Assembly (NCBI GenBank): GCA_000004985.1
Contig: GG738870.1
Reading direction: 5' to 3' (one strand)
Source of the DNA: Naegleria gruberi
Lineage: Eukaryota
DNA length: 64,000 bases
Made by a program: the position numbers and the translations under genes. Positions within the stretch are counted from its first letter, which is position 1. Every line of letters begins with the position of its first letter. The notes under the pieces are model-generated. The model did no database searches and was not told where the DNA came from. It saw only the letters and a program-made list of their open reading frames with translations. Of the stretch, positions 26,179-56,658 are shown one piece after another.

Positions 26179-26393
26179 ATTAGAAATCGTAACGGTAAAA
26201 TTTTTTAAAATGGAACTCTAATAGAAAAAATTGATAGAAATTTGAAATATGAAGTAACACAACAAGTAAGCAATACAACAAGCTGCTTCCAAAACATAAA
26301 AGTACTTTCAAGATAATTTTTCATTAAGATTTTTAATCCATTCAACCACCATCGGAGTGCAGAAGGAATTAAAATAAAAAAAAAATTCTCATC

Positions 26394-26846
26394 ATGAAAT
26401 CCTTCTTAGCCACCTTGTTGGTTTGTCTCTTGATTGCCTACACTGTTAGTGCTCAAAATATGCAATGGAACGTTTGCAAGCGTTTCTCCTCTCAAACTTT
26501 GCAAATTTCTTCCCTCTCAATTTCTCCAGATCCACCACAAGCTGGCAATAATTTGCAAGTCAATCTCCAAGGTACTTTAACCTCACCAATGGGCACAGGA
26601 GCCACTGGTACTGTTGAAGTTCAATATGCTGGTACTCCAATGTATTCCGGTCCTTTTGATCCATGTCAATTCTTGCAAGGATCTAATACTCCATGTCCAC
26701 TTGCTAAGGGTCCAACTACTCTTTCTGTTTCTCAACAAATTACTCCAATGGCTCCTGCTGGAGGTCCATATCAAGGAACTATTATCATCAATGATGAAAA
26801 TAAGAATGTTGTTACTTGTATTGATTTTAATTTCATGATGAATTAA
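26394..26846 (+). CDS. Secreted ML-domain (MD-2-related lipid-recognition, NPC2/Der p 2-like) protein
   Basis: The protein has a signal peptide and the conserved Cys spacing and Ig-like beta-sandwich pattern typical of ML domains, at about 150 aa. Confidence 0.65.
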   Translation: MKSFLATLLVCLLIAYTVSAQNMQWNVCKRFSSQTLQISSLSISPDPPQAGNNLQVNLQGTLTSPMGTGATGTVEVQYAGTPMYSGPFDPCQFLQGSNTPCPLAKGPTTLSVSQQITPMAPAGGPYQGTIIINDENKNVVTCIDFNFMMN

Positions 26847-26995
26847 ATTGTTATTATTAATTGATGAATATGATCAAATATGATATACGGAAGAAATGAA
26901 TATAAATATTATTAATTTATTATTATTATAATTTATAATTGGTATTATGACTGGTTGAGCAATGCAATAATATAACAGTGAGAGTAGCAAAGTAT

Positions 26996-29717: not shown

Positions 29718-29939
29718 TTCAAGTTTGATTTGATGATGATTGCAATTTCCAAGTGAATTGTTTTTCTTTTAAATTTAAACTATTAAAGGTGTTACACTTT
29801 TTCTTAAATATGTAAATAAGTGAGGTTACACACGGAATAGACACGAGTGTCGATTTGCTTCCGATAACTGCAACTTTGAATTACCTGTAAAACGTTGATC
29901 TGCATTGTGTCTGTCTACTCTAAGTAACCGAACAACATT

Positions 29940-31070
29940 TCAATAGAATTTTCTATGAACAATGCTTGGACCCTCTTCTTGATATTCAAAATCAGTAAGC
30001 CACAAATTCTGAGATGATGAAAAACTAGCCATCAGACTGCCACCAAGCCAAACTGATTCATCACCCAAAGGAGGCGCAACTTTGATCTTGTATTTGTATT
30101 CAGGAAATAGTGAAATCAATTCTTTGGAAATTCTCTTATCCATTCCAGAAAACATCGTTCCACCTCCTGAAAGAATAATATTTGCTCTGAAATCAGCTCT
30201 AATATCAAGATCACTTTTGGTAATTGTGTTACATATTGTTTCAATGATGTTCTCTGATTCAATGTTGAACAGTTTTGGTTGGAAGAATATTTCAGGACAC
30301 TGATATCTTTCACAGTCCAAATTGATGTGATTTCCATCTGGTAATTCAAATATCTTTTCAACAGACTCTTGAGATTCAGAGACTTTTCGATATTCTTCTT
30401 CATAATTGAGAGCTACATAACAAACATTTTCCTTAATATCCCTTGCAATTTCCTTATCTACAAGTCCCTTTTTCGTTACCATCTCCATCATGTAATTAGT
30501 CAACTCTCTACCACCAAAATCCATTCTCAAAGTAGCATGAGGTAATGCACTTCCCTCATACACAGGAACTGAATGAGTTACATCATCACCAGAGTCCAAA
30601 ACTAATCCAGTAGTTCTGCCAGATGCAAATACAGACAAGGCAGCTTGACTAGTCGAATACAAACCCTGTACTCTAAACTTTTCAAACATTATTTCAGTCA
30701 TTTGTTCTCTATCCTTCTTCCGATAGTTTTCTGGAACTCAATAGAACGCCTCTCTGTAAAGAAGGATCCACCTTCATCTCTTCAAATACAAAATTCCAAA
30801 TCATTTCCATATCATCCCAACTTGATATTTTCCTCCCTTCTATTGGCTTTCTCAATATTAAATCTTCTCTCTTTAATTTGGCTACCTCTCCAACAAAATA
30901 ATCAATTCCCAAACAATGTTCTTCTCGTTGATGATTTATTATGTTGTATTCCTAACTTGGCCAATAATTGAAGGAAAAACAAGTCTCGGACCATCCTCAC
31001 CAGAAAATCCAGCTCTTGTCCTATAACCTCCATTGTCTATTACTATTGCTTCGTTATCTCCTGCTATCAT
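29940..31070 (-). CDS. Actin-family protein (Arp1/centractin-like, 50-60% identical to actin). The reading frame is interrupted twice, so it is a possible pseudogene or carries assembly indels.
   Basis: Three collinear actin-homologous ORF pieces sit in three different frames. 31070..30939 encodes [15 protein letters not shown]…FPSIIGQ. About 30905..30760 encodes …GIDYFVGE…WDDMEMIW…VLL. 30790..29940 encodes [18 protein letters not shown]…IVHRKFY. No canonical GT-AG intron of suitable phase fits either junction. Confidence 0.55.
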
Positions 31071-31212
31071 TGTTGATTTTAATTTTTGAAATAAAATTCC
31101 GTTCTGTTTATTGGAACTTTTCATGAGCATGATGAACTTTAGGTATAATTGATTTGGAACAGCTTTGGATTGTTAATAGTTACAAACCATAGCAAATTTT
31201 GCATTTCCAATG

Positions 31213-32258
31213 TTAAAAATCATCTTCGTCCTCATCTTCTTCCTCCTCGTCCTCATCCTCATTATCCTCATCATCCTCATCTTCATATCCATGAATATAA
31301 GTGTCAAAATCAACAAAGTCTCTTCGTCTTGATACTCCTGGCTGATAATCAGACAAATTCACATATCCTTCATTCATTCTTACAGTTGCCTTATTTTGCA
31401 CCATTCCAAGTTGTGGAGCTCTGCAAACAGGACAAGGGAATTTAGAATTATGCGATTTCCACATGTTCAAACATTCGTTGTGAATGTTATTTCCACAAAC
31501 TCTACAGAATTTTGCTGATTTCTGTTCAGCTCCATTAAAACATTCATAACAAATTGGACAATGTGTTTCATCATCAAATGGTCGTCTCTTTTTTTCATCA
31601 GATTTGTCTTCATCATCGTCATTTTCTCCCTTCTCAAAAACTTTGTAAGTTTTTACAACACGTTCATCAGCAGTAGACATGATAGCAGGAGCATGTTCAA
31701 ATATTTGTCTCAATTCAGAAGAAAGAAGAGCATTTTGATAAATCAAATTAGATTTTGGATCAACACGAAGAACTTTCAAGTAAACAAATAGCTATGTCGT
31801 GGACACTTAGTTGACCAAAACTCAAAAATCATTTAAAAACTTACAATATGTTTACACAAATAGCCACCTGCAAAATCAGGGCATGAACAATTTGGTTCCT
31901 TACAAATATTTACAGTGTAAACATTACCAGTAGATCCAAGAACCAAGAATTTTTCCGATAATTCTGTTTTATCCTTTCTCTCAATCAGAAACAATCTAAT
32001 AATAATAATATGAATTCCATATCAATTTAATATTAAATTTGATGACATAGCATTGAATGCATACCTCTGATTCTTGGCTCTCGATATTCTTTCCTTTGTT
32101 TTTCTGCAACAAGTTGATACAAAGGGATGGATTCTCTTCTCCTCAACTTTTCTTTGTTTTATTTCCAAAGATGATGACGATACACTTTCCATCTCTTTCC
32201 TCTTCCTAGTATTGGCAGAGGGTGGAGAAGATGAAGAATTGGTTTCAACTTTTTTCAT
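31213..32258 (-). CDS. SWIM zinc-finger plus RING-H2 E3 ubiquitin-ligase-like protein with an acidic C-terminus. It has three exons: 32258..32065, 31995..31845 and 31791..31213.
   Basis: Intron 1 is 31996..32064 (GTATGC…TTATTAG). Intron 2 is 31792..31844 (GTAAGT…ACATAG). Exon 2 encodes the SWIM motif (CKEPNCSCPDFAGGYLCKH). Exon 3 encodes the RING (CPICYECF…CRVCGNNIHNEC…CPVCR). All junctions are in frame. Confidence 0.7.
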
Positions 32259-32337
32259 TTTTTTTTAAATTTAAAATATTATTAGATTTTATTCACTACA
32301 TTTCAAAACTCTCCTGAAGAGTTTAGGTAACTTTATA

Positions 32338-33069
32338 TTGGAATATTTTCCAAACCAATCCGATGCTGGAAAATTGGTACATGCTTTTATAAAGTTATCC
32401 AATCAAGCTTTGGAAATTGTAGAGAAGAAGGAAGTAATTACCATTGAAGATTCAGATAATGATGATGATTCGGAAGAGGATGAGAATACGGCATTGGTGA
32501 AACAAAAAATCACGCAGTCGGGTTTTTCTGCTTTGCTTGACCATTATTTTGGAAATACTGTATTGGTTGAGGAATCAAGCTCCAATACAGATACAGGATA
32601 TAGTTCAGAAACGGTGGAGGATGAAATAACTATTAAATTTGGTACTGCTTCGAAAAATATGACCATTTCGTTTACATCCAATATGAGGTATGATCCAATG
32701 GAAGAAGGATCTGATGGAGAATTCAGCGCCTCATGTGTTCTGGAACCTGGCTCAATATCATTGCAACTATTTTCAAACGAAGAGGAAGTTGATTATTGTA
32801 CTGGTTACGGTGGTGGAGATATTAATATGAAATCAGTGTTGAAACTGAAACAACATTTTGGAATGAGTAGTCAAATTTTGGTTAATGTTTGGAAAATGAT
32901 TATTACAGCTTTTAATGCTCTTGGTTCTGAGCATGTTCGTGGCATGTTGGAAAATGTTGAGGATTTAGATATTCCAGCTTCAGATTCTAGAGTTGTAGCA
33001 AGTGGTGGTAGTGCAGTGAGTGGGAAACAAACCACAAAAACGGTCAGTAAAAGAAAAGGTCCCTATTAA
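32338..33069 (+). CDS. Hypothetical acidic protein; start codon unresolved (no upstream ATG)
   Basis: The 243-aa ORF has an acidic DSDNDDDSEEDE stretch. The first in-frame ATG is internal and the intergenic region has no ATG, so the call is weak. Confidence 0.3.
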   Translation: MEYFPNQSDAGKLVHAFIKLSNQALEIVEKKEVITIEDSDNDDDSEEDENTALVKQKITQSGFSALLDHYFGNTVLVEESSSNTDTGYSSETVEDEITIKFGTASKNMTISFTSNMRYDPMEEGSDGEFSASCVLEPGSISLQLFSNEEEVDYCTGYGGGDINMKSVLKLKQHFGMSSQILVNVWKMIITAFNALGSEHVRGMLENVEDLDIPASDSRVVASGGSAVSGKQTTKTVSKRKGPY

Positions 33070-33093
33070 CATGATGAATGCTTTTTATTTACT

Positions 33094-34284
33094 TTACAAA
33101 AATTTTCTTTGAACAATACTTGCTCCATATTCTCTATATTCAGTACTTGTCAAACACAGGGATGGGAATGTCGAAAGTGAGGCCATCATCATTCCGCCTG
33201 TACAAGCTGCAGTTGATCCCAATGGCTCACTAACTTTACATTCATTACCAGAATTTAATTTCACAAGTTCCTTAGTTAATCTTTGAGAAATTCCCTTAAA
33301 TTGAGAGCTGCCACCAACAAGAACAATGTTATTAAACAAGGTATTTCTCACACCTTCATCACATGACATGATTGAGTTGTAGATGGCACTGTGAATACCA
33401 GTACTAGATTGAACAGTGGTAGGATCAAATTGTGGAGAATCACGTAAACATGAAGGGCTTCCACAATCCCAACCATTTTCAATAGCATTTGGATTGAAAA
33501 GAGCTTCTGGACATCTGATACACTCACCATCCAAACTAATCATACTGCCATCTGGTGTTTCATAATATTGTTCAGTTGGTGCTTTGATTTCAGATTCATA
33601 ATCTTGAGAAACGAAACAGATTCTCTCCTTAATATCTCTCAACATTTCCCAATCAACAGTAGAATAGATCAATCCCTTTTCTGCCATCAATCTGAGGAAA
33701 TACTGATCTAAATTGTGTCCACCAAAATCTAAAGACATAATTCCTTCCTTCAATACCTTTCCATTGATGATTGGAACAATTGAAGTAACTGTATGTCCAA
33801 TATCCAACACAATTCCACTTTCTCTTCCAGAAGCTCGTATAGAAAGGCAAGCTTGATTTTCCAAACACAATTCATCTACCTGGAGTTTTTCAATCAACAC
33901 TTCAACCATCTTTTCTCTATTTTCCAAAGTATTTAACGGAGAATCAGTCATTAATACGGATTTTCCAATTTCCTCATTAATTCTCTTCAAATCATCCAAA
34001 GAATATTTCCAAATCTTTTCAGCATCATCCCAATTACTAACAATTCCCTTACTAATAGGATAGGTTAGTTTCAACATTCCTCTCTTTGAAACAGCTTCAT
34101 CTCCAAAATATTCACTCTTTGATCCGATCATGACTCCTGCTAAGTGTGGTCTTCCAACTGTTGCGGGAAAGCACATCCTAAATTCTTCTTTTTCCTCTGA
34201 TGATGATAATGATGGAGTAAGACCAACCTTCATCCTAAAGGAACCACTATCAATCACTACTGTTTGTTTTTGGGCCATCGACAT
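33094..34284 (-). CDS. Divergent actin-related protein (ARP), single exon
   Basis: The 396-aa ORF has an actin fold signature throughout (VIDSGS, KRG(I/M)L, WDDAEKIW, LDIGHTVTS, GECIRCPEALF, IVLVGGSS). Confidence 0.75.
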   Translation of the reverse strand: MSMAQKQTVVIDSGSFRMKVGLTPSLSSSEEKEEFRMCFPATVGRPHLAGVMIGSKSEYFGDEAVSKRGMLKLTYPISKGIVSNWDDAEKIWKYSLDDLKRINEEIGKSVLMTDSPLNTLENREKMVEVLIEKLQVDELCLENQACLSIRASGRESGIVLDIGHTVTSIVPIINGKVLKEGIMSLDFGGHNLDQYFLRLMAEKGLIYSTVDWEMLRDIKERICFVSQDYESEIKAPTEQYYETPDGSMISLDGECIRCPEALFNPNAIENGWDCGSPSCLRDSPQFDPTTVQSSTGIHSAIYNSIMSCDEGVRNTLFNNIVLVGGSSQFKGISQRLTKELVKLNSGNECKVSEPLGSTAACTGGMMMASLSTFPSLCLTSTEYREYGASIVQRKFL

Positions 34285-34553
34285 GAGTTGTTGTATTTTT
34301 TTTTAAAGTTGTAAATTTTATTAAGTTCATCTACGATAATACCCAATTCAAAAAAGAATTTCAAAATAATGTTCATTGTCTTTCGTATTGTTGAATGAGT
34401 GGATATATGCTGTAATGGTTATTATTTAAAATGTATTAATACTGAAAAGTATCAATGTTCATTGATTCAATGAACTCTGAACTGCAGTTTAATCTTACGA
34501 CTATTTAATGCTCTAGTTCATTTATTATCTCAAATATTCAATTTAAAAAAAAC

Positions 34554-35231
34554 ATGTCTAATACCACTACTAAGACCCTACAACCAGAAGTTGAAGTTAT
34601 TGATTCGAATAACATTTGGTTGATTAAGAATGCTTTCACTCCAGAAGAATGTGCTCAACTTTTAAAAGAAAGTGAAGAAATTGGTTATGGAGAAGCCCCA
34701 CTCACAACTGGACTAAATACCTTCACATTGGACAAGGAAGTGCGAAATAATTCGAGAGCCATGATTGATAATAACAAATATTCAAATATGTTATTCGAAA
34801 GGTTGGCTCAATATCTTCCACAAGATGTTTCAGAATTGAAAATATGTGCTCAGGATGGTTTTTCATTATGTGGTATGAATGAAAGAATTAGATTTTACAA
34901 GTATGCAGCAGGAGAATACTTTGCTCCTCACTACGATGGCTGTTATCAGAAACCTTTATTCCATCTTGAAGTGAATGGTGAGAAGAAAGTTTGTGTCGAG
35001 AGATCATTCATCACCGTGCTTCTCTATCTGAATGATGTCCACTCGGGAGGTGAAACAAACTTTCTCACATCGAGATATGACATATTGCACAGTGTGAAAC
35101 CAAGAACTGGTCAAGTTTTAATGTTCGTTCATGCTAATTATCATGAGGGTTGTTTATTGAATGATCCAAATGAGTTTAAATATGTCATGAGAAGTGATGT
35201 CATGTATAGAAAATTGAGAGATGAATTGTAA
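34554..35231 (+). CDS. 2-oxoglutarate/Fe(II)-dependent oxygenase, prolyl-4-hydroxylase-like
   Basis: The HxD…H iron triad is present (HYDG… then FVHANYHEG). A P4Hc-like jelly-roll pattern is also present. Confidence 0.65.
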   Translation: MSNTTTKTLQPEVEVIDSNNIWLIKNAFTPEECAQLLKESEEIGYGEAPLTTGLNTFTLDKEVRNNSRAMIDNNKYSNMLFERLAQYLPQDVSELKICAQDGFSLCGMNERIRFYKYAAGEYFAPHYDGCYQKPLFHLEVNGEKKVCVERSFITVLLYLNDVHSGGETNFLTSRYDILHSVKPRTGQVLMFVHANYHEGCLLNDPNEFKYVMRSDVMYRKLRDEL

Positions 35232-35313
35232 ATTAAATTATAGTAGGATGTGAATTATTTTCATGCCAATTTTCAATCCTTGAATGAAAAATGTTCTGTC
35301 AATAGTTATACAA

Positions 35314-36624
35314 TTAATTGAAATGAACATGAATGACCTTTCCATAGCCAATGATTTTTCCATTCTCCCTTAATAGAAATCTTCCTAAAAATCCACCCTT
35401 TTCCGTATAATTTTCCATAAATAAAATGTTATGGATTGGTGTCATGGTTACAATTTTCACCTTCTTTTGTTCTTGAATGGAATTGATACGACAAGAGATG
35501 TGCTGAAGGGAACAACTAACTATAGGAATGGCACCAACTCTAAATCCCTTGACTCCTGCCCTCAGAACAACTTCGGCCTCGAACGAAACGACAGGTTTCA
35601 ATTGATCTAGTTCATCACTTACAATAAAACCTGTTCTGACTAGATTATGTGGAATATCTCCAAGATACACTCCACAAATTGTATTACTATCTACTTGTTC
35701 TACTTTTTCATGATTAATCTCAAGGTCAATAACCTGTCTAGTTACAAATGAACTATTATTAAGTGGAAGTAAAACAGTTTGTCCTTTTCTTAGTTGACCA
35801 CATTGAACTTTTCCACAAATAATTTTTCCAACTCCAGAAATGAACATCTCCTTAATGATAATAAATCTTAAACCAGAGTATTTTTCAAAAACCATCGATT
35901 GAGATATCATCTCAAGGCTTTCGTATAGTGTTGGTCCCTTATACCAATTTAATTGTTGCGAATGACAGAGTAAATTATCCTCTGTAAATATACTGGTTGG
36001 TATTATTTGGTAATCTGTTAGCGATTTTTCGAAAATCTCTTTGAAAATTGGTTCAATCCTCTCAATTGATCTTTTAAATTCATTCTCATCATAATTACAC
36101 AAATCCATTCCATTCACACAAACAACAAACTCCCTAACTTGATTAACTCTCGCAGCAATCAATTGATTTTTCAACTCTTCAACATACTCGTCGTGTGAAT
36201 CCATCATGAAATGAGTATTAATTATGAGAATTGCCACATTTGCCATCGAAATGGCTCCCAACTGATTCTTTATATACATGGACAAAGCTCCAGAATCAAT
36301 AAATTGCAGCAAGGAAGAGTTTTCATCCTTCTCGAAAGAAACAAAGGCCATATTAGCAGAGACATAATAATCTCTACTGCAACGTGTAGCAATAAAGTAT
36401 GGTGAATACTTTCTCGGATAGTATCGATCGGTTCGTGTGGGACACGGATAGGAATTTCGATTTGGATTTTGATGAAAGTGTCGGAAGAGTCCTGCAACCT
36501 CAGATTTTCCACTATCAGTACAACCCATGAGTGCAATGTTTAGAATCTTTTCAGTAGTTTTGGTGGTTGTTGATTGGAGCATTTTTTTTTTGCAAAGTTC
36601 ATCATCACTTTTGATCTGGGACAT
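35314..36624 (-). CDS. eEF1A/HBS1-family translational-GTPase-like protein with degenerate G motifs (possible pseudo-GTPase)
   Basis: A P-loop (GCTDSGKS) and an NKxD-like VNGMD are present, but the switch motifs are degenerate (DSGAL in place of DxxG). Clear EF-Tu domain II and III beta-barrel patterns are present (GKVQCGQLRKGQTVLL…, FEAEVVL…). Confidence 0.6.
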   Translation of the reverse strand: MSQIKSDDELCKKKMLQSTTTKTTEKILNIALMGCTDSGKSEVAGLFRHFHQNPNRNSYPCPTRTDRYYPRKYSPYFIATRCSRDYYVSANMAFVSFEKDENSSLLQFIDSGALSMYIKNQLGAISMANVAILIINTHFMMDSHDEYVEELKNQLIAARVNQVREFVVCVNGMDLCNYDENEFKRSIERIEPIFKEIFEKSLTDYQIIPTSIFTEDNLLCHSQQLNWYKGPTLYESLEMISQSMVFEKYSGLRFIIIKEMFISGVGKIICGKVQCGQLRKGQTVLLPLNNSSFVTRQVIDLEINHEKVEQVDSNTICGVYLGDIPHNLVRTGFIVSDELDQLKPVVSFEAEVVLRAGVKGFRVGAIPIVSCSLQHISCRINSIQEQKKVKIVTMTPIHNILFMENYTEKGGFLGRFLLRENGKIIGYGKVIHVHFN

Positions 36625-36798
36625 TTTTATTATTAAGGGCTATCAAATACTTGTACATGAAATATTCAGTGAGGATAGCATTGATGGAATAGTCTTCTTA
36701 TTACTGTTGAATGCCGAATGTTAATCGATTCGCATCAACTGCAATTTCTTCAACTCTTTCGCAATTAATTTCACATTAAGGCATTCTCTAGCAACTAG

Positions 36799-39408
36799 TT
36801 GATTTGCTTGAGTAAATTGGAAACTTGGTTTCTAATATATTACTCAAAGGGGAGTTCTGATATTTCCGTAAAGGCCTTAATTATAACGTTTAAATTTGAA
36901 AAGTCAGATAAGAAAGGTATTGACTTACTTGATGTGACGTGTGGCATCTTTAGGAAAAATTCATTTTTAATATTTGACCCTTTGAAAAAAGCAAAACAAA
37001 TTATCCTGTCTGTTCGACAAGACAAAATGCCAACAATTTATTTCTTCATCTTTTCCTGTATTGTGGCTACCACACAGATGTTTAGTTTAGTTTCGGCTCT
37101 TTCGTTAGAAACAACAATGAAAATAGATGCTAGTCAATCATCATCTTTGAATTATCTATCATCCAATAACAGTTCATCCAATGATAACAGTATTATTAAT
37201 AATTTAACGCCACCCATTGGAGTAATTTTGAATAATTATAACACTTCGGATTTTATAAATCTTATTCTAAACATTACAACAAATATAACAGCCGCACAGG
37301 ACGAATTAGTCATGACTGAAGCAATGCGAACGAATCCAACAATCACAATCATTATCAGAGTGTTACTAACTTTATTTAATTTCTTTCTAATAATTTTGAT
37401 ACTTTCGTTTAGAAAGAAGGAACCAATCAAATCAAAATTTTATATTTCTATGGCGTTGGTATTGGTTAATATCATTGGACACATTCAGGGAATTATTGAA
37501 ATTCTTCCAGGTGCACCTTTATTCTTTCAAAGTTATTGGAATCAGTTTATTTCAGAAAAGTTGACGAAACAAGTTGATGCTCAAACATTTTACAGAAATA
37601 ATTTGAATTCGTATGGTGTTCCAACGTGGCTGGAAAGTTTTGCACTCTTTGAAAACATTTATTGTTTCATTGATGCCTATTTTATTTATGGATGTACTGT
37701 TATTGGATTGGCAATGTATTCGATTCAGATAATTAAACTAATGTTATTGTTGCTGTTGAAAGATAGAAAACAGGCAGTGGCTAGATCATTGGAAGAATTC
37801 AAAAAGAGACAAGTTGAAAAGTTTAAAGATCTCAAATTGAAAGAAGTTTCTTCAGAGACGAATCTTCAAGATCAGAAACCAATTAGTTTGATGAAACGAC
37901 TCTCAAGGAAGATTCTTTTTGTGGAAACAAACACGTCTTCTGAAAATTTGACGAAACAATCAGGTGAATCTTCACCAACCACTAGTGCTAGCTCAGTATC
38001 TAGTGCTCCTTCCACTTCCAATTTATTAGAATCTAATAATTCACAACAATCACAACAACAATTGCAACAAGAATCCTCAGAAGTATCAACTCCAAGATTA
38101 TCTAAAACTGGAGAGAATGATGATTCGTCCAGTTTAGCCTACGAAGATATTGCCCTCGATTTAACAACTGATGAAGATGCACTTTCAACTAGTTACGAAG
38201 AAATTTCAAAAAAGGGAAAATTTGTTAATTTCCTTAAAAAGATTTTAAAATATCAAATTATTGAGCTGAGCTACATTGGATTCTGGTTGACTGTGTGGTA
38301 TATTCTCGTTACAATTGTAATTATTATTCGTACAGAAGACACTTGGAGTAATTTTTTCATTTCTTGGGATTCGTATAGTGGATATTGTCGACATAATGAT
38401 AGAGTTCAGATTGGATATTATTCGATTGCCATCTTGTTCCTAATTTTTGTTTTCATTCCCATTACTTTAATATTCGATTTTGTAACTAGTTTAATCAAAT
38501 ATAGAAAAATTATTCGAATCAATAGAGAAAAGAATAGAAAGACAGAAAACTTTCTCATTTACTATTTTTATGAAACTGATCCTTTCGTTTACAGAACCGA
38601 AGTATTGGGAGTATTAATATTGGACTTTATAGTGGTCCTTACCTTTTTAATTGTGCTTCCAATTGGAGTTAACGCAAATTATTCTCAACAATTGGCGAGT
38701 TCAATACTCCTTTCCATTGGATTGAATTTTATTGGAGGTGTACTTTGTAATCCTGGAATTACAATTTCAAGAACTGTGTGGAATTATTTGGTTGAGTTCA
38801 AGACCAAAAGGGCAAATAAGAAAGATTCAAATGATTCTGATACTATATTTTCATTACAGCAATTGATTTCTTCACCAATTTGTTCTGAATCAATTGATTA
38901 TGTACTTTCCCACAAAACTGAAAGAGGTTTATTCTATCAATATCTGAAAGAAGAATATTCTGTGGAAAATCTACTATTCACAGAAGATCTTATCAAATTG
39001 AGAAAGATCCACAACGCACATATCAGAGCCAAAGTAATGAAAATTAAGGAAATGATCAAACTATACCTTTCCAATAGTGATTCAGTGTTTGAACTCAACG
39101 TTCCAACAAAAGTGATTCAACAAGAGTTGACTAATTTTAGGGAATTGATGGCTTTGTTGGATGAATTGAATTTAAAGGCTACTCAACTTCCTCGTGTATT
39201 TAAGGCTGATTCGAATACTAGATATTTTCCAAATATTGATTCGAATAAGGAAGAAAAGTTGAAACAATTAATTTCACAATTGGGTAGTGGTCGAATATTC
39301 ACAAATATTCAATCAGAGGTTTACAAAAACTTGATGGATTCATATTATCGATTCAATAACTCTAGAAAGTGGAAGGACTATATTAAGACTTCTTCTTCGT
39401 CAGCTTAA
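36799..39408 (+). CDS. Polytopic membrane protein with a C-terminal RGS domain (second member). It has a Ser-rich loop. The true start may be the internal Met at about 37026, which precedes a signal-like segment.
   Basis: The 869-aa ORF has multiple TM helices. The C-terminal RGS box is SIDYVLSHKTERGLFYQYLKEEYSVENLLFTEDL…NLMDSYYRF. Confidence 0.6.
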   Translation: MICLSKLETWFLIYYSKGSSDISVKALIITFKFEKSDKKGIDLLDVTCGIFRKNSFLIFDPLKKAKQIILSVRQDKMPTIYFFIFSCIVATTQMFSLVSALSLETTMKIDASQSSSLNYLSSNNSSSNDNSIINNLTPPIGVILNNYNTSDFINLILNITTNITAAQDELVMTEAMRTNPTITIIIRVLLTLFNFFLIILILSFRKKEPIKSKFYISMALVLVNIIGHIQGIIEILPGAPLFFQSYWNQFISEKLTKQVDAQTFYRNNLNSYGVPTWLESFALFENIYCFIDAYFIYGCTVIGLAMYSIQIIKLMLLLLLKDRKQAVARSLEEFKKRQVEKFKDLKLKEVSSETNLQDQKPISLMKRLSRKILFVETNTSSENLTKQSGESSPTTSASSVSSAPSTSNLLESNNSQQSQQQLQQESSEVSTPRLSKTGENDDSSSLAYEDIALDLTTDEDALSTSYEEISKKGKFVNFLKKILKYQIIELSYIGFWLTVWYILVTIVIIIRTEDTWSNFFISWDSYSGYCRHNDRVQIGYYSIAILFLIFVFIPITLIFDFVTSLIKYRKIIRINREKNRKTENFLIYYFYETDPFVYRTEVLGVLILDFIVVLTFLIVLPIGVNANYSQQLASSILLSIGLNFIGGVLCNPGITISRTVWNYLVEFKTKRANKKDSNDSDTIFSLQQLISSPICSESIDYVLSHKTERGLFYQYLKEEYSVENLLFTEDLIKLRKIHNAHIRAKVMKIKEMIKLYLSNSDSVFELNVPTKVIQQELTNFRELMALLDELNLKATQLPRVFKADSNTRYFPNIDSNKEEKLKQLISQLGSGRIFTNIQSEVYKNLMDSYYRFNNSRKWKDYIKTSSSSA

Positions 39409-39617
39409 CATCTTTGACAAATATTTTTTCAAAAATTATAATTAACGAGACGAAGAATAAGATGAATTTAATTTCACGGCACTTACATCCATACATCCAC
39501 ACGGAAGTGAAGTTACATTTTGAAGACCTGCAACAAAAAGGAGCTCCAAAACAAATTACAGCTCAAATAGAATAAAAACAAGTTGTTTTCAAATAAAAAG
39601 TGCAAAAACAAAAGGGC

Positions 39618-39706
39618 AGGGTGGTACGTGGATCGAACACGTGACCATCGGATGTCTGCTGCAAATAACTTTGCAATCCGGTGCTCTACCGCTGAGCTAA
39701 CCACCC
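39618..39706 (-). tRNA. tRNA-Cys (anticodon GCA) with a ~17-nt intron, 89 nt
   Basis: Acceptor GGGTGGT/ACCACCC, discriminator U73 (a Cys identity element), D-arm GCTC-AGCGGTA-GAGC. The anticodon stem CCGGA is followed by loop TTGCAA, then the intron inserted after position 37, then TCCGA. T-arm ACGTG-TTCGATC-CACGT. Confidence 0.75.
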
Positions 39707-39980
39707 ATTCAATATTCTTCAAAACTTAATCTAATACGACAATAGAAAACAGCAAATTTTTATAATACATACTTAAATGAAAGTAAGTAAGGAAAGTAAT
39801 ACTTACTCAGCTGAGTCTAAGTTTCAAATATAAGGAAAATTCAAAAAGTAATTATGTCTCATTGAATCTCACCGTTTATTTGTATCAACTCCCTGCCAAA
39901 ATCTGTGAGAAATTTGTAGTGTTACTCAACTTTCGTTCAATGAACTGTGAAGAAGAACCAAATCCAATAAATTTGAAAAA

Positions 39981-41168
39981 ATGAACAAAAGTCTACCACC
40001 ACCACTCTCTACCAAGAATTATCAACCTGTTCTCTGTGAACCCAGTCAAAATCCAACATTAATCATTGACAATGGTTCTTCCAATTCCAGAGTTGGTTTC
40101 TCATTTGAAGACATTCCTGGTTCTGTATTTCCTACAGTGTTTGGCAGAGTAGGAGGTAGACCGATTTATATAGGACCAGGTATCGCTAGGGAAGGATATG
40201 TTGGCCATGAAGCATTGTCCAAAAGGGGAATTGCTTCATTGAAATATCCTATTAAGAGAGGAATTGTAACTGATTGGCAATTTATGGAAAAGATATGGAG
40301 CCATAATCTTATTTTGGAAATGAACATTGCTATGGAGGAGCATTGTGTTTTATTGACAGAAACTCCATTGAATCCAACAGCAAATCGTGAAAAGATGTGC
40401 CAATTAATGTTCGAAAGGTTTCGTGTACCAGCAATGTGTGTTGCTGTTCAAGCTGTGTTGTCTTTGTTCGCTTCAGGTAGAAGTAGTGGAATAGTGTTAG
40501 ATTCAGGAGGTGGAGTTTCAAATGTTGTTCCAGTTTATGAAGGTCTTGCCTTGCCACATGCCATTTCTAGACAAGAATTGGCAGGTAGCGATGTGACTGA
40601 TCATTTGATGACATTGTTGATGGATCGTGGTTATAGTTTTATAAGTGCTGAACGAGATATTGTGAATGATATTAAGGAAAAGATGTGTTTTGTAGCTTTA
40701 GATTGTGATTCTGAAAAGAAATTATTCGAAAGTTCGATTCCAACAGCAGATTCCTCATATGAGTTGCCTGATGGAAATGTTATCAATCTAGGTTGCGAAA
40801 GATTCATTTGTCCAGAACTGTTATTCCAACCAAACATGGTGGAAATGGAAGAAATAGGTCTTCATGAATCCATACACAACTCTATCCGAAAGTGTGACCT
40901 CGATATTCGAAAGCAATTGTATTCCAACATTCTTCTCGCAGGAGGGTCTACTCAAATTAAAGGATTTTCTGAGAGATTGTTTAAGGAGTTGAAAGAAATT
41001 ACTTCTTCCTCTGTGGAATTCAATATTGTCACCCCACCAGATAGAAATAATTCTTCTTGGATTGGTGGAAGAATTCTTTCGTCCATGTCAACTTTTGGAT
41101 CAATGTGCATGTCCAAAGCCGAATATGAAGAGATTGGACCTGGAATAGTTCATAAAAAATGTTTCTAA
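39981..41168 (+). CDS. Divergent actin-related protein (ARP), single exon
   Basis: The 395-aa ORF shows actin signatures (IIDNGSS, KRGI…LKYPI, TDWQFMEKIW, MFERFRVPAM, IVLDSGGGVS, LAGGSTQ, IVHKKCF). Confidence 0.75.
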   Translation: MNKSLPPPLSTKNYQPVLCEPSQNPTLIIDNGSSNSRVGFSFEDIPGSVFPTVFGRVGGRPIYIGPGIAREGYVGHEALSKRGIASLKYPIKRGIVTDWQFMEKIWSHNLILEMNIAMEEHCVLLTETPLNPTANREKMCQLMFERFRVPAMCVAVQAVLSLFASGRSSGIVLDSGGGVSNVVPVYEGLALPHAISRQELAGSDVTDHLMTLLMDRGYSFISAERDIVNDIKEKMCFVALDCDSEKKLFESSIPTADSSYELPDGNVINLGCERFICPELLFQPNMVEMEEIGLHESIHNSIRKCDLDIRKQLYSNILLAGGSTQIKGFSERLFKELKEITSSSVEFNIVTPPDRNNSSWIGGRILSSMSTFGSMCMSKAEYEEIGPGIVHKKCF

Positions 41169-41307
41169 TAAATACCTGAGTGTTTTATTATTGGGAAAGT
41201 ATCAATTCAATTAATCTTAATTGAAATGATTCAAATCGTTCACATTTTAAAAACTTAAAGTTTCACTTTGAAATAAATTTATGATGATGTACCAACTAGA
41301 ATTTTTC

Positions 41308-42417
41308 CTAATAATATTGTTCCAATATTTTTCTAAGTTCTTGTTTTGCAAATATTTTTATAAATTTAATTGAGGACAAAAACCAAATTTGCAAAGGATT
41401 GTTATTTAAAGAGTTAATAAGAAATCTTAGCAACCAGTGTGTCAAAATCAAATGTTGAATCTCTATTCTTGGCACAACTAACATATAAGCAATCACCATC
41501 TGCAAATCCAAACCTATCCCCAAATAAAGAGGCAAATAAACTTTTCTCTTTGGGAACATACTCTGCATCACCATATCCAAACAGGTAATTTTTAGTGTCC
41601 GTGTTAAATGCCATGGATTTATAATAGAAATCAAAATCTCCATCTGTAACGTCATACCAAAACAATAGGGGTGTCTTTGGAATATCCAACCATGTGATGG
41701 AATCTTCAATTCTGAATTCGTTGGCAATATTCTATTCAATTCTTCACAATTCAATTGTAAAATCAGGGAATGATCTGATAATTGACCACACCATTCTTTT
41801 GGAATGTCTGCACTTCCTCCAAGCTTTGACATTCCTTTAGTTATTTCCTTAGTTTCATCCCTATCCAATCCAATACTCCACTTTGTTTTTTCCAATATAT
41901 TAATCCAAGTTCTATGATGAATTCTAAAAGAATCTTCCAAATCCCTCTCAGAATGGAATGAATAATATGTTGATCTATTTTCAGGATTTTCCCATACCTT
42001 GTTCAATTTTTCCAATTCATCGACCGTTCGTCTAATACCTCTAGAAGAGCAATTAATAAATTTAATTAAATAACTATCGAAACCAGTGAGTAATGGAAAG
42101 TACCCTGACAAACAAAAAACTTTCCACTTTTCACTCAATTGAATAAATAATCGAAACAAGCATACAGTATTCTTTCTAAATTTTTTACATTCAGCCTTCA
42201 ACATGATCTGTAATCCCTTCAATGATTTATCTCTTTTAATCATTACTTCCATTCGATTTGAATAAATTTCATCAGAATATGTTTGCATAATTTCATTCCA
42301 TTCTTGAGAAATTAATTTACAATTTTCCAAATCTTTTACATTGGCAAGCATGGATAGAAAGTAACAAATAAATTCCTGATCCGATGAGTGAAAGAGTGGC
42401 GCTAGATCTTGAGACAT
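41308..42417 (-). CDS. F-box-like protein. The reading frame changes near 41700..41760, so it is a possible pseudogene or has an indel.
   Basis: An N-terminal F-box-like helix is present (LFHSSDQEFICYFLSMLANVKDLENCKLISQEWN). The 3' third of the listed 369-aa ORF reads like out-of-frame sequence. A better C-terminus (…DIPKTPLLFWYDVTDGDFDFYYKSMAFNT…LVAKISY*) is in another frame ending at 41414. No canonical intron reconciles the two frames. Confidence 0.45.
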   Translation of the reverse strand: MSQDLAPLFHSSDQEFICYFLSMLANVKDLENCKLISQEWNEIMQTYSDEIYSNRMEVMIKRDKSLKGLQIMLKAECKKFRKNTVCLFRLFIQLSEKWKVFCLSGYFPLLTGFDSYLIKFINCSSRGIRRTVDELEKLNKVWENPENRSTYYSFHSERDLEDSFRIHHRTWINILEKTKWSIGLDRDETKEITKGMSKLGGSADIPKEWCGQLSDHSLILQLNCEELNRILPTNSELKIPSHGWIFQRHPYCFGMTLQMEILISIINPWHLTRTLKITCLDMVMQSMFPKRKVYLPLYLGIGLDLQMVIAYMLVVPRIEIQHLILTHWLLRFLINSLNNNPLQIWFLSSIKFIKIFAKQELRKILEQYY

Positions 42418-44214: not shown

Positions 44215-46126
44215 ATGGCCTCATCACCAACGAGAATTTTTGAAGCCTACGAGATGGTAAGCTATATTGGTGAAATTGAGAACCAACGCACACAATCAAT
44301 ACAAGAACTTGTACCTCTAAAATCAAAAGATCATAACATTTACCTTATGAACGACAGATATGAAATTGATTGTTTCCCTATCGATTATTCTATTCATATT
44401 AAAACGCATCCATTCAAATTTTCCCAACTAAAGAACTCCTCTGAAGCAGATATTTGGAAATTGATCAAGAGGATTGCTCTTCAACAAAGTATATTTAAAG
44501 GTAGATTTATTGGTTTGAAAGGAAAAGACGGCAAGGTTAAAACTGTATCCGAATTTAAGGCTTTTATAGATCAAGTTGATATTCAGACAGATTTAAAGTT
44601 CGTTATTGTTAAAGAGAGGTTTGAGAATGTATTTTCTACCATTGAATCAAGGCTAAACCAATTAAATTCCTTAGAAAGGAACACTTGTTCTATTATCACC
44701 CTGGCAAAGGACGCTTCCTTTAACTCAAGTGCATTGGAAGGGAATATTCACAGCAACAAAGGACGAATTTGAGGCATCCGAAAGTGAGGATGAAGATTCA
44801 CTCACTCCTGATACTAAAGAAATACGAGTACTGAGAAAGATGCATGAAAGATTCCAAACCGATATAATTAATGGAAAGGTTTATACACTCGATGAAGAGC
44901 TACTGTTGACAGAACACAAAGAAATGGCCATTGGTCTTGGAGAGGGTGCAGGAAGATTCAGAAGTGTAAATGTTTATGTTAAAGGATCTTCCCACAAGTT
45001 TGCACCTTATGATACAATAAGAAGCAAGTTGGCATCTGTTTTAATGATTTTCTACTCCAAAATCACCAGCGCCAATTCGTTGGAAGAACGAATTAAGGCT
45101 GCAATTTACATCCATTATGAAATTGTTAACATTCACCCATTCAGAGATTACAACGGAAGAATGGCAAGATATATCATGAACTTAGTTTTATTTCAGTATT
45201 GTAGAATTCCTCCGGTATCAATATTGCCAGGAATTAAGGATGAATACTTTGCTTCTGTTCGCGAAGTTGATAAGAATAATGATTATAGATTTATTACTAC
45301 CATCATTACAGAATCAATTATTAGGTCTATCGAAAAAGCATTTTATTATACTCACATACAGGATGGAATGGGACTATTGTTGAATAGATTTACATTGGAT
45401 CAGCTTGCAGAATATTGTAAATCTAACAACATTACCACTGACGAAAGTTCCAAGTCTAAAATGATAAGAGATATTTTGAGACTCTCTAATAGAATTGGAG
45501 AATTTGCTTTTGTGTTGGAGTTGGAAAAACAAGATTTACAATCAATAGTTCTGGACAATAATCTATCCACTTTTTCTCAATTGCAAACATGTTTAATAGA
45601 GATTTTATTTTCTAATCCAAACACCAACCTGAAACAATTTCTCAATTTATTCAACACTGAAGGTTTAGACAGATTCTTGGAATTATTAAGAATGAAAGAT
45701 GAGTCCTCTAAGGAAGGAAAAATTACAGCTATCATGGAAGAAGTATTAATATTAGGTATGAGAATCGGATTTGGTAATATGAAGGAAGAGAACATCTCTT
45801 CTTTATGCAATGAACTGAAGATCTCTTCATTTGGTTCCAAACTTGAAAACATTCATTCAATGTTTGGTGTTATTTATCCTCATTACTCTAGATTTAAACA
45901 TTTATTATTTAAAGAATACATTTGGGATATTAAGAAAGGTATTTCTTTGGAACAATTATATCAATTTCATTACTATGACTTACTCGTTTATGCAAAAAAA
46001 CAACAATTGAATTTAAAACATAAATCCAAGAAGAGCATTTGTAAGAATATTTTAACCAGTGGTCATATTAAGAGACTTAATGAGAATGACGATTTGTTGC
46101 AAAATCTCAAGAAAAAGAAGTTATAA
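44215..46126 (+). CDS. Fic (filamentation induced by cAMP) domain protein, class-II layout (N-terminal inhibitory helix then Fic core), interrupted by a +1 frame change at about 44745
   Basis: The canonical Fic motif HPFRDYNGRMAR lies at 45134..45169 in the 465-aa ORF. The inhibitory-helix motif SSALEGN (44725..44745) is encoded at the end of the upstream 185-aa ORF in a different frame, about 130 aa upstream, as in FICD. No intron-sized GT-AG interval fits. Confidence 0.65.
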
Positions 46127-46255
46127 CCAAATATATTAGGTTTCATTTCACTTATGAATTTGACTCTTTCCAAATTTGCAAACCAAAATATTTAACATAA
46201 AGCAAATTGTCATTATAAATTGTCGTATTAGATTTAGTTTTGAAGAATATTGAAT

Positions 46256-46344
46256 GGGTGGTTAGCTCAGCGGTAGAGCACCGGATTGCAAAGTTATTTG
46301 CAGCAGACATCCGATGGTCACGTGTTCGATCCACGTACCACCCT
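46256..46344 (+). tRNA. tRNA-Cys (GCA) with intron, second copy; identical to 39618..39706 but inverted
   Basis: The copy is identical across the mature tRNA and the intron. About 40 nt of 5' flank are also nearly identical. Confidence 0.75.
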
Positions 46345-46739
46345 ACCTTTTGACTGTGCAATTTACTTAAAGGGTAAGATTTTTTTAACATGTTTACAGT
46401 AAAAACATAACGAAATTGATAACTTTACTAATGAGACAAACTTCTTCTCCATTGGACTGTTCATGAATTCATGAAAGTTAAATGTCAACATTGTTGATAA
46501 GTTTGAAATGTAACTTCTAAAGTGGAATGAAAAATAATATTTTGGTAATATTGCGAAAACAGAAGTTTCCCTTATCGTCCATTCATTACTCTAACTTTCG
46601 TCTCATTTCCAATAAGGAGCAGTAAATTTCGAAGAGTCTTTTAATTGCATTGTAATGATGTCAATTAAACATTTAAATATTTGATCACTGATTCTATTCT
46701 TAATTATTCACATTTAAAAAACTACAAACACAATTAACA

Positions 46740-52544: not shown

Positions 52545-55500
52545 TTACTTTTTGATACCAATGAGGGCACTGTTGAGTTTGCTACTGTCAATGTTACCAC
52601 CTCCATCGAGATCATCACCTCCAGCTCCTCCTCTTGCTCCACCTCTACGGAGAGCAACTGATTTGGCAGCTGTGGCAAGTTTTAATTGTTGCATCTTTTC
52701 ATCCATAGCTCCTCTTCCTTCACCTCCACCAACTGTGGATTTGTTCTTAAGTACATCAAGTTTTTGCTTGGCTGAATTGATCTTAAGTTGTTGTTTGGCA
52801 GCTTCCTTCTTAACCTTTTCTTCTTCGGCCTTCTTTTTCTTTTCTTCTGCCTTTTTGGCTTGTTCATTCTTTTCATTGGCCTGTTTGAATTGTTGCATGA
52901 ATAGATCGATGAGAGCCAAGAATTTATCAGGTTCCTTTTGTAAATCTTCTGGTCTTTCATCAAATGACTTGGCAAGAGAATCAATTTCAGTTTTCATAAT
53001 CTTGAATTTAGCTTCAATACCTTCCAATTCATCCTTAACTTTTTGTTCAAAGCTTTCCATTGTTGAAACGAACTTGTCTTCTTCAGAGGTATTTTCCCTA
53101 GCTTTTGTAATTTGTTGTGAAAGTTGAGTGAGACACTTCTTCAATTCGTTGATATCATCTTCAACTGATCCAACCAAAACACGTGTAGCTGGTTGAATAT
53201 GAGTTAATTGAGTATCAAAGTCCATCAAGTGTTTCTTCTTTTCTCCAATGAAATCGACAATGTACTGGAGTAAACTAGTTTTACCATCACCTGATTTGGT
53301 GTCAGCAAGTTTTTGCAATGATTTGAGCTTGAAACCAAATGATATTTTCTTCTTTTGTTGACCGTTCAAAAAGTTACCAAATGTAAGAATGACAGCAAGA
53401 ATTTCCATGAATTTTTCACTTTCTCTAGCTTCCTTACATCCCAAAATCATATTTTCAATATCTGGCTTAATTTTTGAAATCATTTCATTGAAACGGAACT
53501 TGAATGACCAAGCATCCAATCTTCCAATCAAGTTAGGTATACCGTTCATGACACGGAAGAATTTATCTGGTTCAGCCAATTCATCCATCGGTCCATCATA
53601 TCCCATCACAGTATCAACTTCTTCTTGTTCTGGAGCAATTTGCTTAATAGTTCCAATATTATCAGCAGTCACAACTGCTTCATCCATAGCAATAATAGCT
53701 TTTCTGAGCATATCATATGATACACCTCTGATACTACCTAATTGGAGTGATACAGAGTAACTACGCTTAGCATCAAGCAATGATTTAACTTCCTTCTTCT
53801 TTTCCTTTGGTTCTGCTTTTTCACCTTCTTTTTCTTTCTTTGCTGTAGAGAATACAGTTGACAATTCATCAAGATTCAGCTTGGAAATAATAGAATTGGT
53901 TTCTTGAGCAATATTCTTCTTAATGAAAATTGTTTTTGCGACATTGTTCTTGTTGATAGCATCAAAGTGAACTTGACGAGTTGTTTCAGTTGGTGCCTTA
54001 GTTGGCAATGTTGGTAAACCATCACCAACACCAACACCTCTTCCACGGCCCATCATTGGCATACCAGGTACACCAGGTACTCCTGGAATACCAGGAACAC
54101 TTGGCACTCCTGGAATACCCATACCAGGTGGCATAGGAACACCTCCCATACCAGGTGGCATTGGTACTCCACCACCCATTCCAGGTGGCATTGGAATACC
54201 ACTACCAGGAGGCATTGGAATACCACCAGGTGGAGGAGGAATACCACCCATTCCTGGAGGCATTGGAATACCACCCATTCCAGGTGGCATTGGAATACCA
54301 CTACCAGGAGGAGGAGGAATACCAGTTCCAATAGGAGGAGGAGGAATACCCATTCCAGGAGGTGTTGGAATACCTACACCAATTGGTGGTGGAGGAATAC
54401 CCATTCCAGGAGGTGTTGGTATATCACCACCACCCAAAATTGGAGGTGGAGGAACACCAACTCCAGGAGGAAGAGGAATATTACTAGTTGTAGGTGCAAG
54501 TGAAGGATCTTCTTGTGTTGGTGGATTCTTCTTTAATTGATCCCTTTCTGTTTCCAATTCTTTCTCCTTCTTTTTCAAAGTTTCAATCTTGGTATTACAT
54601 TCAGAAATTAATTTCTTAACATTGTCCTCCTCTTTGGTCCAGTGTTTTTTCTTATCATCGAGTACCTTCTTTGCATGTTGGACTTGTTCATTGTTTGCCT
54701 TCTTTGAAAAGACTTCATTCTTAAGTTTTTCAATTTCTTGGTGGAGTTGAGTGAGTTCAGCCTTAATGTGGGAGTGCTTTTCTTGTTGAGTAGCCTTTTC
54801 CTTCTCAGTTTCAGAAAGCTCACTTCTAGTTTGAGCTGTTTGTTCTTCAATTTCTTTCAAGAACTTTTCCTTTTCTTCAGAAAGGGAATTCTTCTTCTTT
54901 TCAATTTCTTCCAAAGTTTTGGAAATTTCAACAATTTTAGTCTCGTACTCTTGAAGAATAGATTCGCGTTCTGATTGCAAGTTATTAAGTTGATATTGTT
55001 GGGTTTTGACTCTGTCAGCAAGTTGTTTTTCCTTCTCTGTTTTGATTTTCATGTCTTCTTCTGCTCTCTTTGGTGCCAATCCAGCATCAACCAAAAGTTT
55101 AATCTTGCTCCAATTTTGAGCTGATTGTTGTTCGGTAAGAGACTTGTCAATAGCCACCGAGTTGTAAATGATCAATTCAGTTAACAATTCATAGAGCATA
55201 TTTTTCAAAGGTTCATCATCGGAAACTTCATTCAATTTTTGTTTAAGAAGCTTGACAACATTTACAGAATCTGATAAATCATTTTCCAAAAATTCTTTTT
55301 GACAAACTTCCAGTTCACCAGCTAAAACTTCCATTTGACTGTTCAAATCAGTAATAAATTCTTGAGCTTCCTCATCTTCCATAGATTGAACAGATTTTTC
55401 CAAGCTTTGATTCTTGAGCTCTGTAATTACTTCCAAACATTTCAAATTTCTAAATTCCTTCTTGAACAAGGATTTGGTACCTTCATCAGGAGATTGATCC

Positions 55501-56658
55501 AATAATGTATTGAACAAGAACAATGCATAGTATGCATAGTCGAGATTAGATTTTGTCATTCTTTGAATAATATCATAAAATCTGGTCTTTTCTCTCTTGA
55601 CAAGTCTATAGTGACTCAATGCACTGACAACCAAACTAAAACCATGACTTGCCCAACTGGCCATGACAATCAAAATTTGTAAAATATCACAAGCTGCTTC
55701 AATATTTGGAGTATCTAAAATGAGAACCAAGTTTTTCATGGCATCTTTTTCTGCCAAAAATTCTTCAATACCCACATTGGTATTCAACAAGGCCTTCAAG
55801 GCAGCAATACAGAGGGATTGTTTTTCCAAATCCTCTACAGTAGCAACCATATTTGTGGATGTGAGTGTTCCACTTTCGTGCTCAGAGACAGCAGTTGATG
55901 TACCGCCTTGCTCAGAGTTGGATTGGTGATGTTGATGGAAATTTGGTGTATAATCTTCAGAGTCAGAATATTCTCCTTGATCGATTTCCATATTATCGGA
56001 GGCAGGTGTTACATCTTCCTCAGATTGTTGTTTTCTAGAAAGAACATTGGTCATATTCAAACAATGGATCAAATGTTTGATACCTCCTTGCATAATAAAT
56101 TGGTTGACCCATCGAATTGGCTTGTCAACCAAAAGTTCAGCAATACGAGCCAAACGTGCAGAATCATAATTGTGTTTTTCCCATTGAGAAAGGAGTACGA
56201 AAGGAGTATCCTCATCAGCAGTTTGATCATTATCGTTTTTAAAGTAATACAAACGTCTATTGATTATATTGTATTAACATGATTGATTATATTGTAATGA
56301 AACATTTTAAACATAACATCCAAAGAGTTACATACCTGACTTTTTCCTGTACAGTTTTAGTTGCCAATTGTTTTCTTCTGATACTATCTGGTACTCCCAT
56401 TTCCACTAACATTTCATTGAAATTTCCATTGACATCATCGTCATTCCATTGTAATTGTTGTTGGTAGGCAAGAGCATTAAAAGGTTCTCTATTAAAACCT
56501 CCATTATTACTACCACCAATGTTTGATGATGAGTGGGATGGGGAATTATTTGGTGAGTGATGAAGCGCCGAAGATGATGAAGAAGCAGCCTGAATCGTCA
56601 GTTGCTGCGAGTGAGAGAGCGCGGAAGTACTCTTTGATGTATTCTTTTTTGGCGCCAT
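52545..56658 (-). CDS. Diaphanous-related formin (GBD/FH3, coiled coil, poly-Pro FH1, FH2). It has two exons, 56658..56336 and 56256..52545.
   Basis: The intron is 56257..56335 (GTATGT…ATCAATAG, 79 nt) and joins …TVQEKV|R|LYYFKND… in frame. FH1 has more than 12 repeats of PPGMGIPPPPIG. The FH2 region follows and a basic C-terminal tail ends the protein. Confidence 0.8.
54040..54480 (-). repeat. Tandem imperfect about 30-36-nt repeats encoding the formin FH1 polyproline tract
   Basis: The units ccaggtggcattggaatacc[a/c]cc… are repeated. The translation is (M)GIPPPPG/IG repeated. Confidence 0.7.

Follow-up and report, generated by a model that had tools for sequence, protein, structure and literature searches.

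A divergent actin-family gene on the minus strand of Naegleria gruberi contig GG738870.1 (assembly GCA_000004985.1) is interrupted by two frame switches. On balance, we take it to be a young non-processed pseudogene or a null allele. In the 64,000-nt stretch of DNA that was analyzed (the window), the gene runs from 31070 to 29940 as three collinear pieces, each of which matches actin. The finding is an ordinary one: large actin families can include broken members, and another amoeba offers a direct precedent. The break exists in the reference assembly, and the annotation pipeline could build no intact model of the gene.

Piece 1 (30942..31070, minus strand) begins at the ATG at 31068-31070, comprises 43 codons and is closed in its own frame by a double premature stop, TAA TAA, at 30936..30941. 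Starting instead from an in-frame ATG further upstream, at 31130, would lengthen the protein by 20 residues without homology to actin. Piece 2 (30712..30951, minus strand) provides 80 open codons in a displaced frame, including the motif WDDMEMIW, before it meets a TAG; its actin-homologous core lies at 30739..30909 on the same strand. Piece 3 (29940..30737, minus strand) contains 265 codons followed by the stop TGA at 29940-29942. Its first ATG, at 30701, opens a 253-aa ORF (MTEIMFEKF...).

An earlier note on this DNA had reported an actin-family gene here, quoted three peptide strings from it and described a collinear alignment to actin. The gene is present, on the minus strand, all three strings are found in the sequence, and the profile positions of Pfam family PF00022 are successive across the three pieces. 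The same note placed each piece in a different frame, and this has to be corrected. Only two frames are occupied: pieces 1 and 3 share one (the ORF ends 31130 and 30701 differ by 429 = 3 × 143), and piece 2 alone is displaced, with its ORF end at 30912 off that frame. Read in the frame that pieces 1 and 3 share, the region of piece 2 holds 10 stops. No single frame is open across the gene. The net shifts, +2/-1 and then +1/-2, cancel each other, and the distance from the ATG at 31070 to the stop at 29940 is 1131 nt, or 3 × 377.

The homology of the three pieces to actin is far above chance. PF00022 matched piece 1 (30939..31070) over profile positions 3-40 (E = 1.8e-11), piece 2 (30709..30912) over positions 45-93 (E = 1.6e-4) and piece 3 (29940..30701) through to the end of the profile at 409/410 (E = 6.3e-69). 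When the pieces were joined, the resulting protein scored 326 bits (E = 3.7e-97; cut-off, 27 bits), which places it in the actin family.

Both switches can be confined to short intervals by the stops on either side. Junction 1 (30942..30951, minus strand; net frame change -1/+2) is the 10-nt sequence GAATACAACA, limited by TAG 30952-30954 in the frame of piece 2 and TAA 30939-30941 in the frame of piece 1. It falls in the region of the D-loop, which is longer here than in actin, and the stretch that spans it reads CCTTCAATTATTGGCCAAG...CATCAACGAGAAGAACATTG. Junction 2 (30712..30737, minus strand; net frame change +1/-2) is 26 nt long and lies between TGA 30738-30740 in the frame of piece 3 and TAG 30709-30711 in the frame of piece 2, within the stretch GGCGTTCTATTGAG...CCAGAAAACTATCGG. 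These stops do not allow the position of about 30760 previously given for the second switch, which is 25-45 nt away from the permitted interval. Within junction 2, the shift most likely occurred at the 5' edge, in AGTT 30735..30738, between the conserved LL and the P of PEN; this placement, drawn from the alignment, presumes that PEN is the invariant P109-x-N111 of actin. On that presumption LL and P are separated by 4 nt where 9 would be expected, and an additional codon comes after. The earlier statement that joining the frames here reproduces actin spacing exactly is thus correct as a net count, but it fails when PEN is aligned with P109-x-N111. The two indels are about 210-230 nt apart.

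The joined protein was 48% identical to human beta-actin (ACTB; 361 bits), 37% identical to human Arp1 (ACTR1A; 265 bits) and 51% identical to two conventional-type protist actins. The ACTB and ACTR1A sequences used are 53% identical to each other, which fits the known value. The best 60 PDB sequence matches listed were all conventional actins, at about 370 bits, with no Arp1 chain among those 60. The description of the gene as centractin-like is therefore not one we can keep: the pairwise scores, the PDB matches and the motifs FPSIIG, WDDME and GPSIVHRK are all of the actin type, and by these comparisons the protein would be a divergent actin.

Nor does it behave like a conventional actin. 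Conventional actins are typically more than 80% identical among eukaryotes, and the joined protein reaches 48-51% and carries S14G, G15Y, G158D, T303G and K336D. The substitutions H73G and Y306F relative to beta-actin complete the set that we noted, together with the longer D-loop and the loss of 5 residues after residue 196. On the basis of established actin structure, we take most of the altered positions (S14, G15, G158, T303 and K336 among them) to be nucleotide contacts. However, these changes mark a divergent paralog and are not in themselves a sign of decay, since the nucleotide site also departs from the canonical residues in the intact neighbouring paralogs. Invariant actin-family positions are kept in all three pieces. 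Judged by its sequence, the locus is probably a lineage-specific divergent actin paralog of N. gruberi.

Two small frame-shifting indels, one in the D-loop region and the other between the VLL strand and the P-x-N motif, would have inactivated the gene, and translation from the ATG at 31070 would end after 43 codons at TAA TAA. The result would be a young non-processed pseudogene, or else a null allele that the assembly happened to capture. We infer that the indels arose by mutation and not through faulty base calls or assembly, and that inactivation was recent. The locus has one mark of a non-processed pseudogene: family homology extends along its whole length and the genomic frame is disrupted, by two shifts and by TAA TAA after codon 43. 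A processed pseudogene was rejected on the grounds that there is no poly(A) after the stop (29800..29940) and no close parent within the window. The earlier note had left the choice between assembly indels and a very young pseudogene, and that framing was right: introns are excluded, and recoding signals and RNA families are absent.

The serious competitor is that the gene is intact and functional, and that base calling or consensus building introduced both indels by mistake where the draft assembly is locally thin or of low quality. We regard this as quite possible, though short of an even chance. Several features of the locus suit it: none of the three pieces has an in-frame stop, each shows normal codon-position GC (GC1 > GC2 > GC3) in its own frame, and invariant actin-family positions survive from piece to piece. 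The two shifts also cancel, give a total length of 3 × 377 and lie within about 230 nt of each other, as one low-quality patch of draft Sanger sequence would produce. All of these except the invariant positions were counted against a pseudogene. However, the explanation needs two independent errors in one gene. N runs and contig gaps are absent from the window, and its other ORFs of at least 150 aa add up to 44,361 nt, none of it visibly broken; for that reason we do not consider the assembly to be generally indel-prone here. Junction 1 (GAATACAACA, 10 nt) contains no homopolymer run, the usual cause of indel miscalls. To these points for real mutation we added the large size of the family, the orphan status of this member, the failure of the annotation pipeline to build an intact model and the case of act30_ps in Dictyostelium.

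The intact state of the pieces limits the age of any inactivation. There are no in-frame stops across the approximately 376 codons when each piece is read in its own frame. A stop would arise from about 5.4% of all possible substitutions, and the probability of seeing none is 0.035 at 60 neutral substitutions. Neutral divergence since any inactivation is thus under about 5%, and if the gene is a pseudogene, it is a young one. By a rough calculation, the chance that two indels would cluster in this way is about 0.37, and the chance that they would cancel is about 0.5; statistically, neither feature carries weight. Sequence searches of protein sets and metagenome contigs brought up nothing closer than about 55% identity, and the gene has the look of a dispensable, fast-evolving one.

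It is improbable, in our estimation, that the break is real and the locus is still in use through the 253-aa ORF from ATG 30701, which would yield an actin-fold fragment without its N-terminal part, equivalent to actin residues of about 123-375. An ATG-initiated ORF with strong actin homology does survive, and the public model keeps exactly that part, from the D at 30713. However, an internal start has no promoter evidence behind it, and both upstream pieces are still actin-like in their own frames, which would not be expected if the truncation were long-standing. The phosphate-1 loop is also missing from the fragment, as is most of subdomains 1 and 2; judged by the established structure of actin, the fragment therefore could not form a nucleotide cleft.

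We give very little credence to a full-length protein made from the sequence as it stands, whether by successive -1 and +1 ribosomal frameshifts, by indel editing of the transcript or by micro-introns. All that speaks for the idea is the mutual cancelling of the shifts and the open state of each piece when read in its own frame. For splicing, all GT-AG, GC-AG and AT-AC pairs of the needed phase were enumerated at both junctions, and there was no intron of realistic length that spared the conserved flanks. This exhaustive search bears out the earlier remark that no suitable GT-AG intron exists. The only candidates that keep the flanks are GTTAG (5 nt), GTTCCAG (7 nt) and AT..AC pairs of 23 and 32 nt, the latter two with no U12 donor, so that these "introns" of 5-32 nt all lack a consensus. 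Longer candidates cut into the conserved core; a 34-nt GT..AG intron at 30747..30714, for instance, was rejected because it would remove the conserved VLL...P-x-N block.

Signals for recoding were likewise missing. Junction 1 (GAATACAACA) has no slippery heptamer of the form X XXY YYZ, junction 2 has no known +1 frameshift motif, and the context of its frame-0 stop, GGA-TAG-A, is not a known shifty stop. Rfam found no elements in 29800..31300. We therefore rejected programmed ribosomal frameshifting, and the searched collections hold no homologous gene that could show conservation of the sites. We know of no report of indel editing of nuclear mRNA in Heterolobosea. An alternative genetic code in which TAA and TAG are sense codons does not rescue the gene, because the homology itself switches frame. 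That the genome is correct and a 376-aa divergent actin is nevertheless produced through two compensating recoding events is thus highly unlikely; if true, it would be without precedent among heterolobosean nuclear genes.

The public model at the locus (NAEGRDRAFT_33917 = EFC44065.1 = XP_002676809.1 = UniProt D2VGH4), named "Actin", is not the product of the broken gene. It is a homology-driven chimera of two genes and an annotation artefact. Its residues 125-381 (257 aa) are identical to piece 3 from the D at 30713 to the stop (29943..30713), and its residues 1-124 are identical to residues 3-126 (34278..33907) of the neighbouring gene at 33094..34284. The two parts are connected by an "intron" of 3193 nt, from a GT at 33906 to an AG at 30714. 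This false intron spans the rest of the neighbouring gene, pieces 1 and 2 of the broken gene and two other ORFs, one for a RING-finger protein (31213..31779) and a further one at 32338..33069.

The neighbour itself is an intact actin-family gene (33094..34284, minus strand) encoding 396 aa (PF00022, E = 3.6e-86) and is 38% identical to the broken gene. Relative to the other actins that were aligned, it has a 22-residue insertion, and its phosphate-2 loop has the non-canonical sequence DIGHTVTS. The exact protein was absent from a collection of 15 billion proteins, and in public records this gene appears to be represented solely by the opening 124 aa of the chimera.

A third actin-family gene (39981..41168, plus strand) corresponds exactly to NAEGRDRAFT_33902 and shares 40% identity with the broken gene. 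The stretch 29940..41168, about 11 kb, thus contains three actin-family genes that diverge from one another, with the two intact ones at 38-40% identity to the broken copy. The N. gruberi family comprises 78 actins and Arps (PMC7594500). The cluster looks like the product of old local duplication, since genome-wide there is on average about one family member in every 500 kb. A recent tandem duplication of a neighbour was rejected, given 38-40% protein identity and negligible DNA similarity; the broken gene has only one DNA match within the window, at 64% identity (40402..40834). A formin of 1235 aa (52545..56252; FH2, E = 1.9e-77) is encoded 11 kb beyond the actin cluster.

Other features of the window were recorded in passing. 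An inverted repeat pair of ~147 nt (39597..39743 and 46219..46364) is 95% identical and contains an 89-nt tRNA gene at 39618..39706 on the minus strand (Rfam RF00005, 54.7 bits). This tRNA gene apparently contains an intron, has a GCA anticodon as read by eye and was not reported by ARAGORN. Two plus-strand ORFs, 44215..44772 and 44729..46126, overlap by 44 nt in different frames, and the downstream one has a Fic domain; they could represent an intron-containing gene or another frame break. The ORF at 26394..26843 is an exact match to NAEGRDRAFT_79887.

Searches for relatives returned little beyond conventional actins. Apart from the chimeric NAEGRDRAFT_33917, a set of 5.8 billion proteins contained nothing above about 55% identity, and a phmmer search of 1.84 billion cluster representatives gave, past the chimeric model, only conventional actins at ≤55% identity. 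The best identity in a scan of metagenome contigs was 52%. For the N-terminal 113 aa, the best match in the protein collection was 48% identical, and no protein in the 5.8-billion collection covered pieces 1 and 2. Look-ups of exact products (the 253-aa ORF, a 63-aa ORF, the RING neighbour in two versions and a 432-aa neighbour) led to no second assembly. We found no mention of NAEGRDRAFT_33917 or PRJEB11402 in the literature.

One metagenome assembly in ENA, ERZ929261 (run ERR1078381, PRJEB11402), contains contigs that are 96.8-98.8% identical to 26260..26881 and 37604..41316 of the window, with several small indels. This degree of similarity indicates a second, N. gruberi-like strain, either environmental or a contaminant. 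Compared with the contig of that strain, the window has 59 extra nt at 39745..39803. The strain could serve as a source of independent sequence for the broken locus.

The biological weight of the broken gene is small. One more decaying copy in a family of 78 actins and Arps would bear out gene turnover there and tell us little else. The practical value lies in curation: XP_002676809.1/D2VGH4, listed as "Actin", joins two genes, and the searched collection contains no separate model for the intact gene at 33094..34284. Actin counts, alignments and expression measures for Naegleria that use these identifiers inherit both errors.

Among known proteins, Arp1 (centractin, the filament subunit of dynactin) resembles the joined protein in belonging to the actin superfamily and in its similar length. 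They differ at the C-terminus, where the Naegleria gene has the actin-type GPSIVHRK and Arp1 has GARSIHRK, and we rejected Arp1 as an identity for the gene because the identity is 37% against 48% to actin and the best 60 PDB matches listed are all conventional actins. Conventional actin (human ACTB; PDB 7ju4, 8glv) is matched in the full-length PF00022 domain, in the length of about 376 aa and in the motifs FPSIIG, WDDMExIW, ASGRTTG, DSGD-VTH, LPDG and GPSIVHRK. Unlike conventional actin, the Naegleria locus has only 48-51% identity, a longer D-loop, the residue changes described above, the deletion after residue 196 and a broken frame.

The close precedent is act30_ps of Dictyostelium (DDB0237409; Joseph et al. 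2008, PMC2441452), also an amoebal actin copy from a large family. In that gene, the loss of 2 bases puts the sequence out of frame after codon 98 and leaves ORFs of 106 and 258 aa (PMC2441452). Both loci have a small frame-shifting indel near codon 100 that separates a short N-terminal ORF from a long C-terminal one, and both were originally listed as protein-coding. Against the 106 and 258 aa of act30_ps, the Naegleria locus has pieces of 43, 80 and 265 codons, with the 253-aa ATG-initiated ORF in the last. The two differ in origin and in lesion: act30_ps derives from a conventional actin and has a single 2-base deletion, whereas the Naegleria gene is a divergent actin with two shifts that cancel. 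The break in act30_ps was verified by resequencing, whereas the Naegleria break is known here from the assembly.
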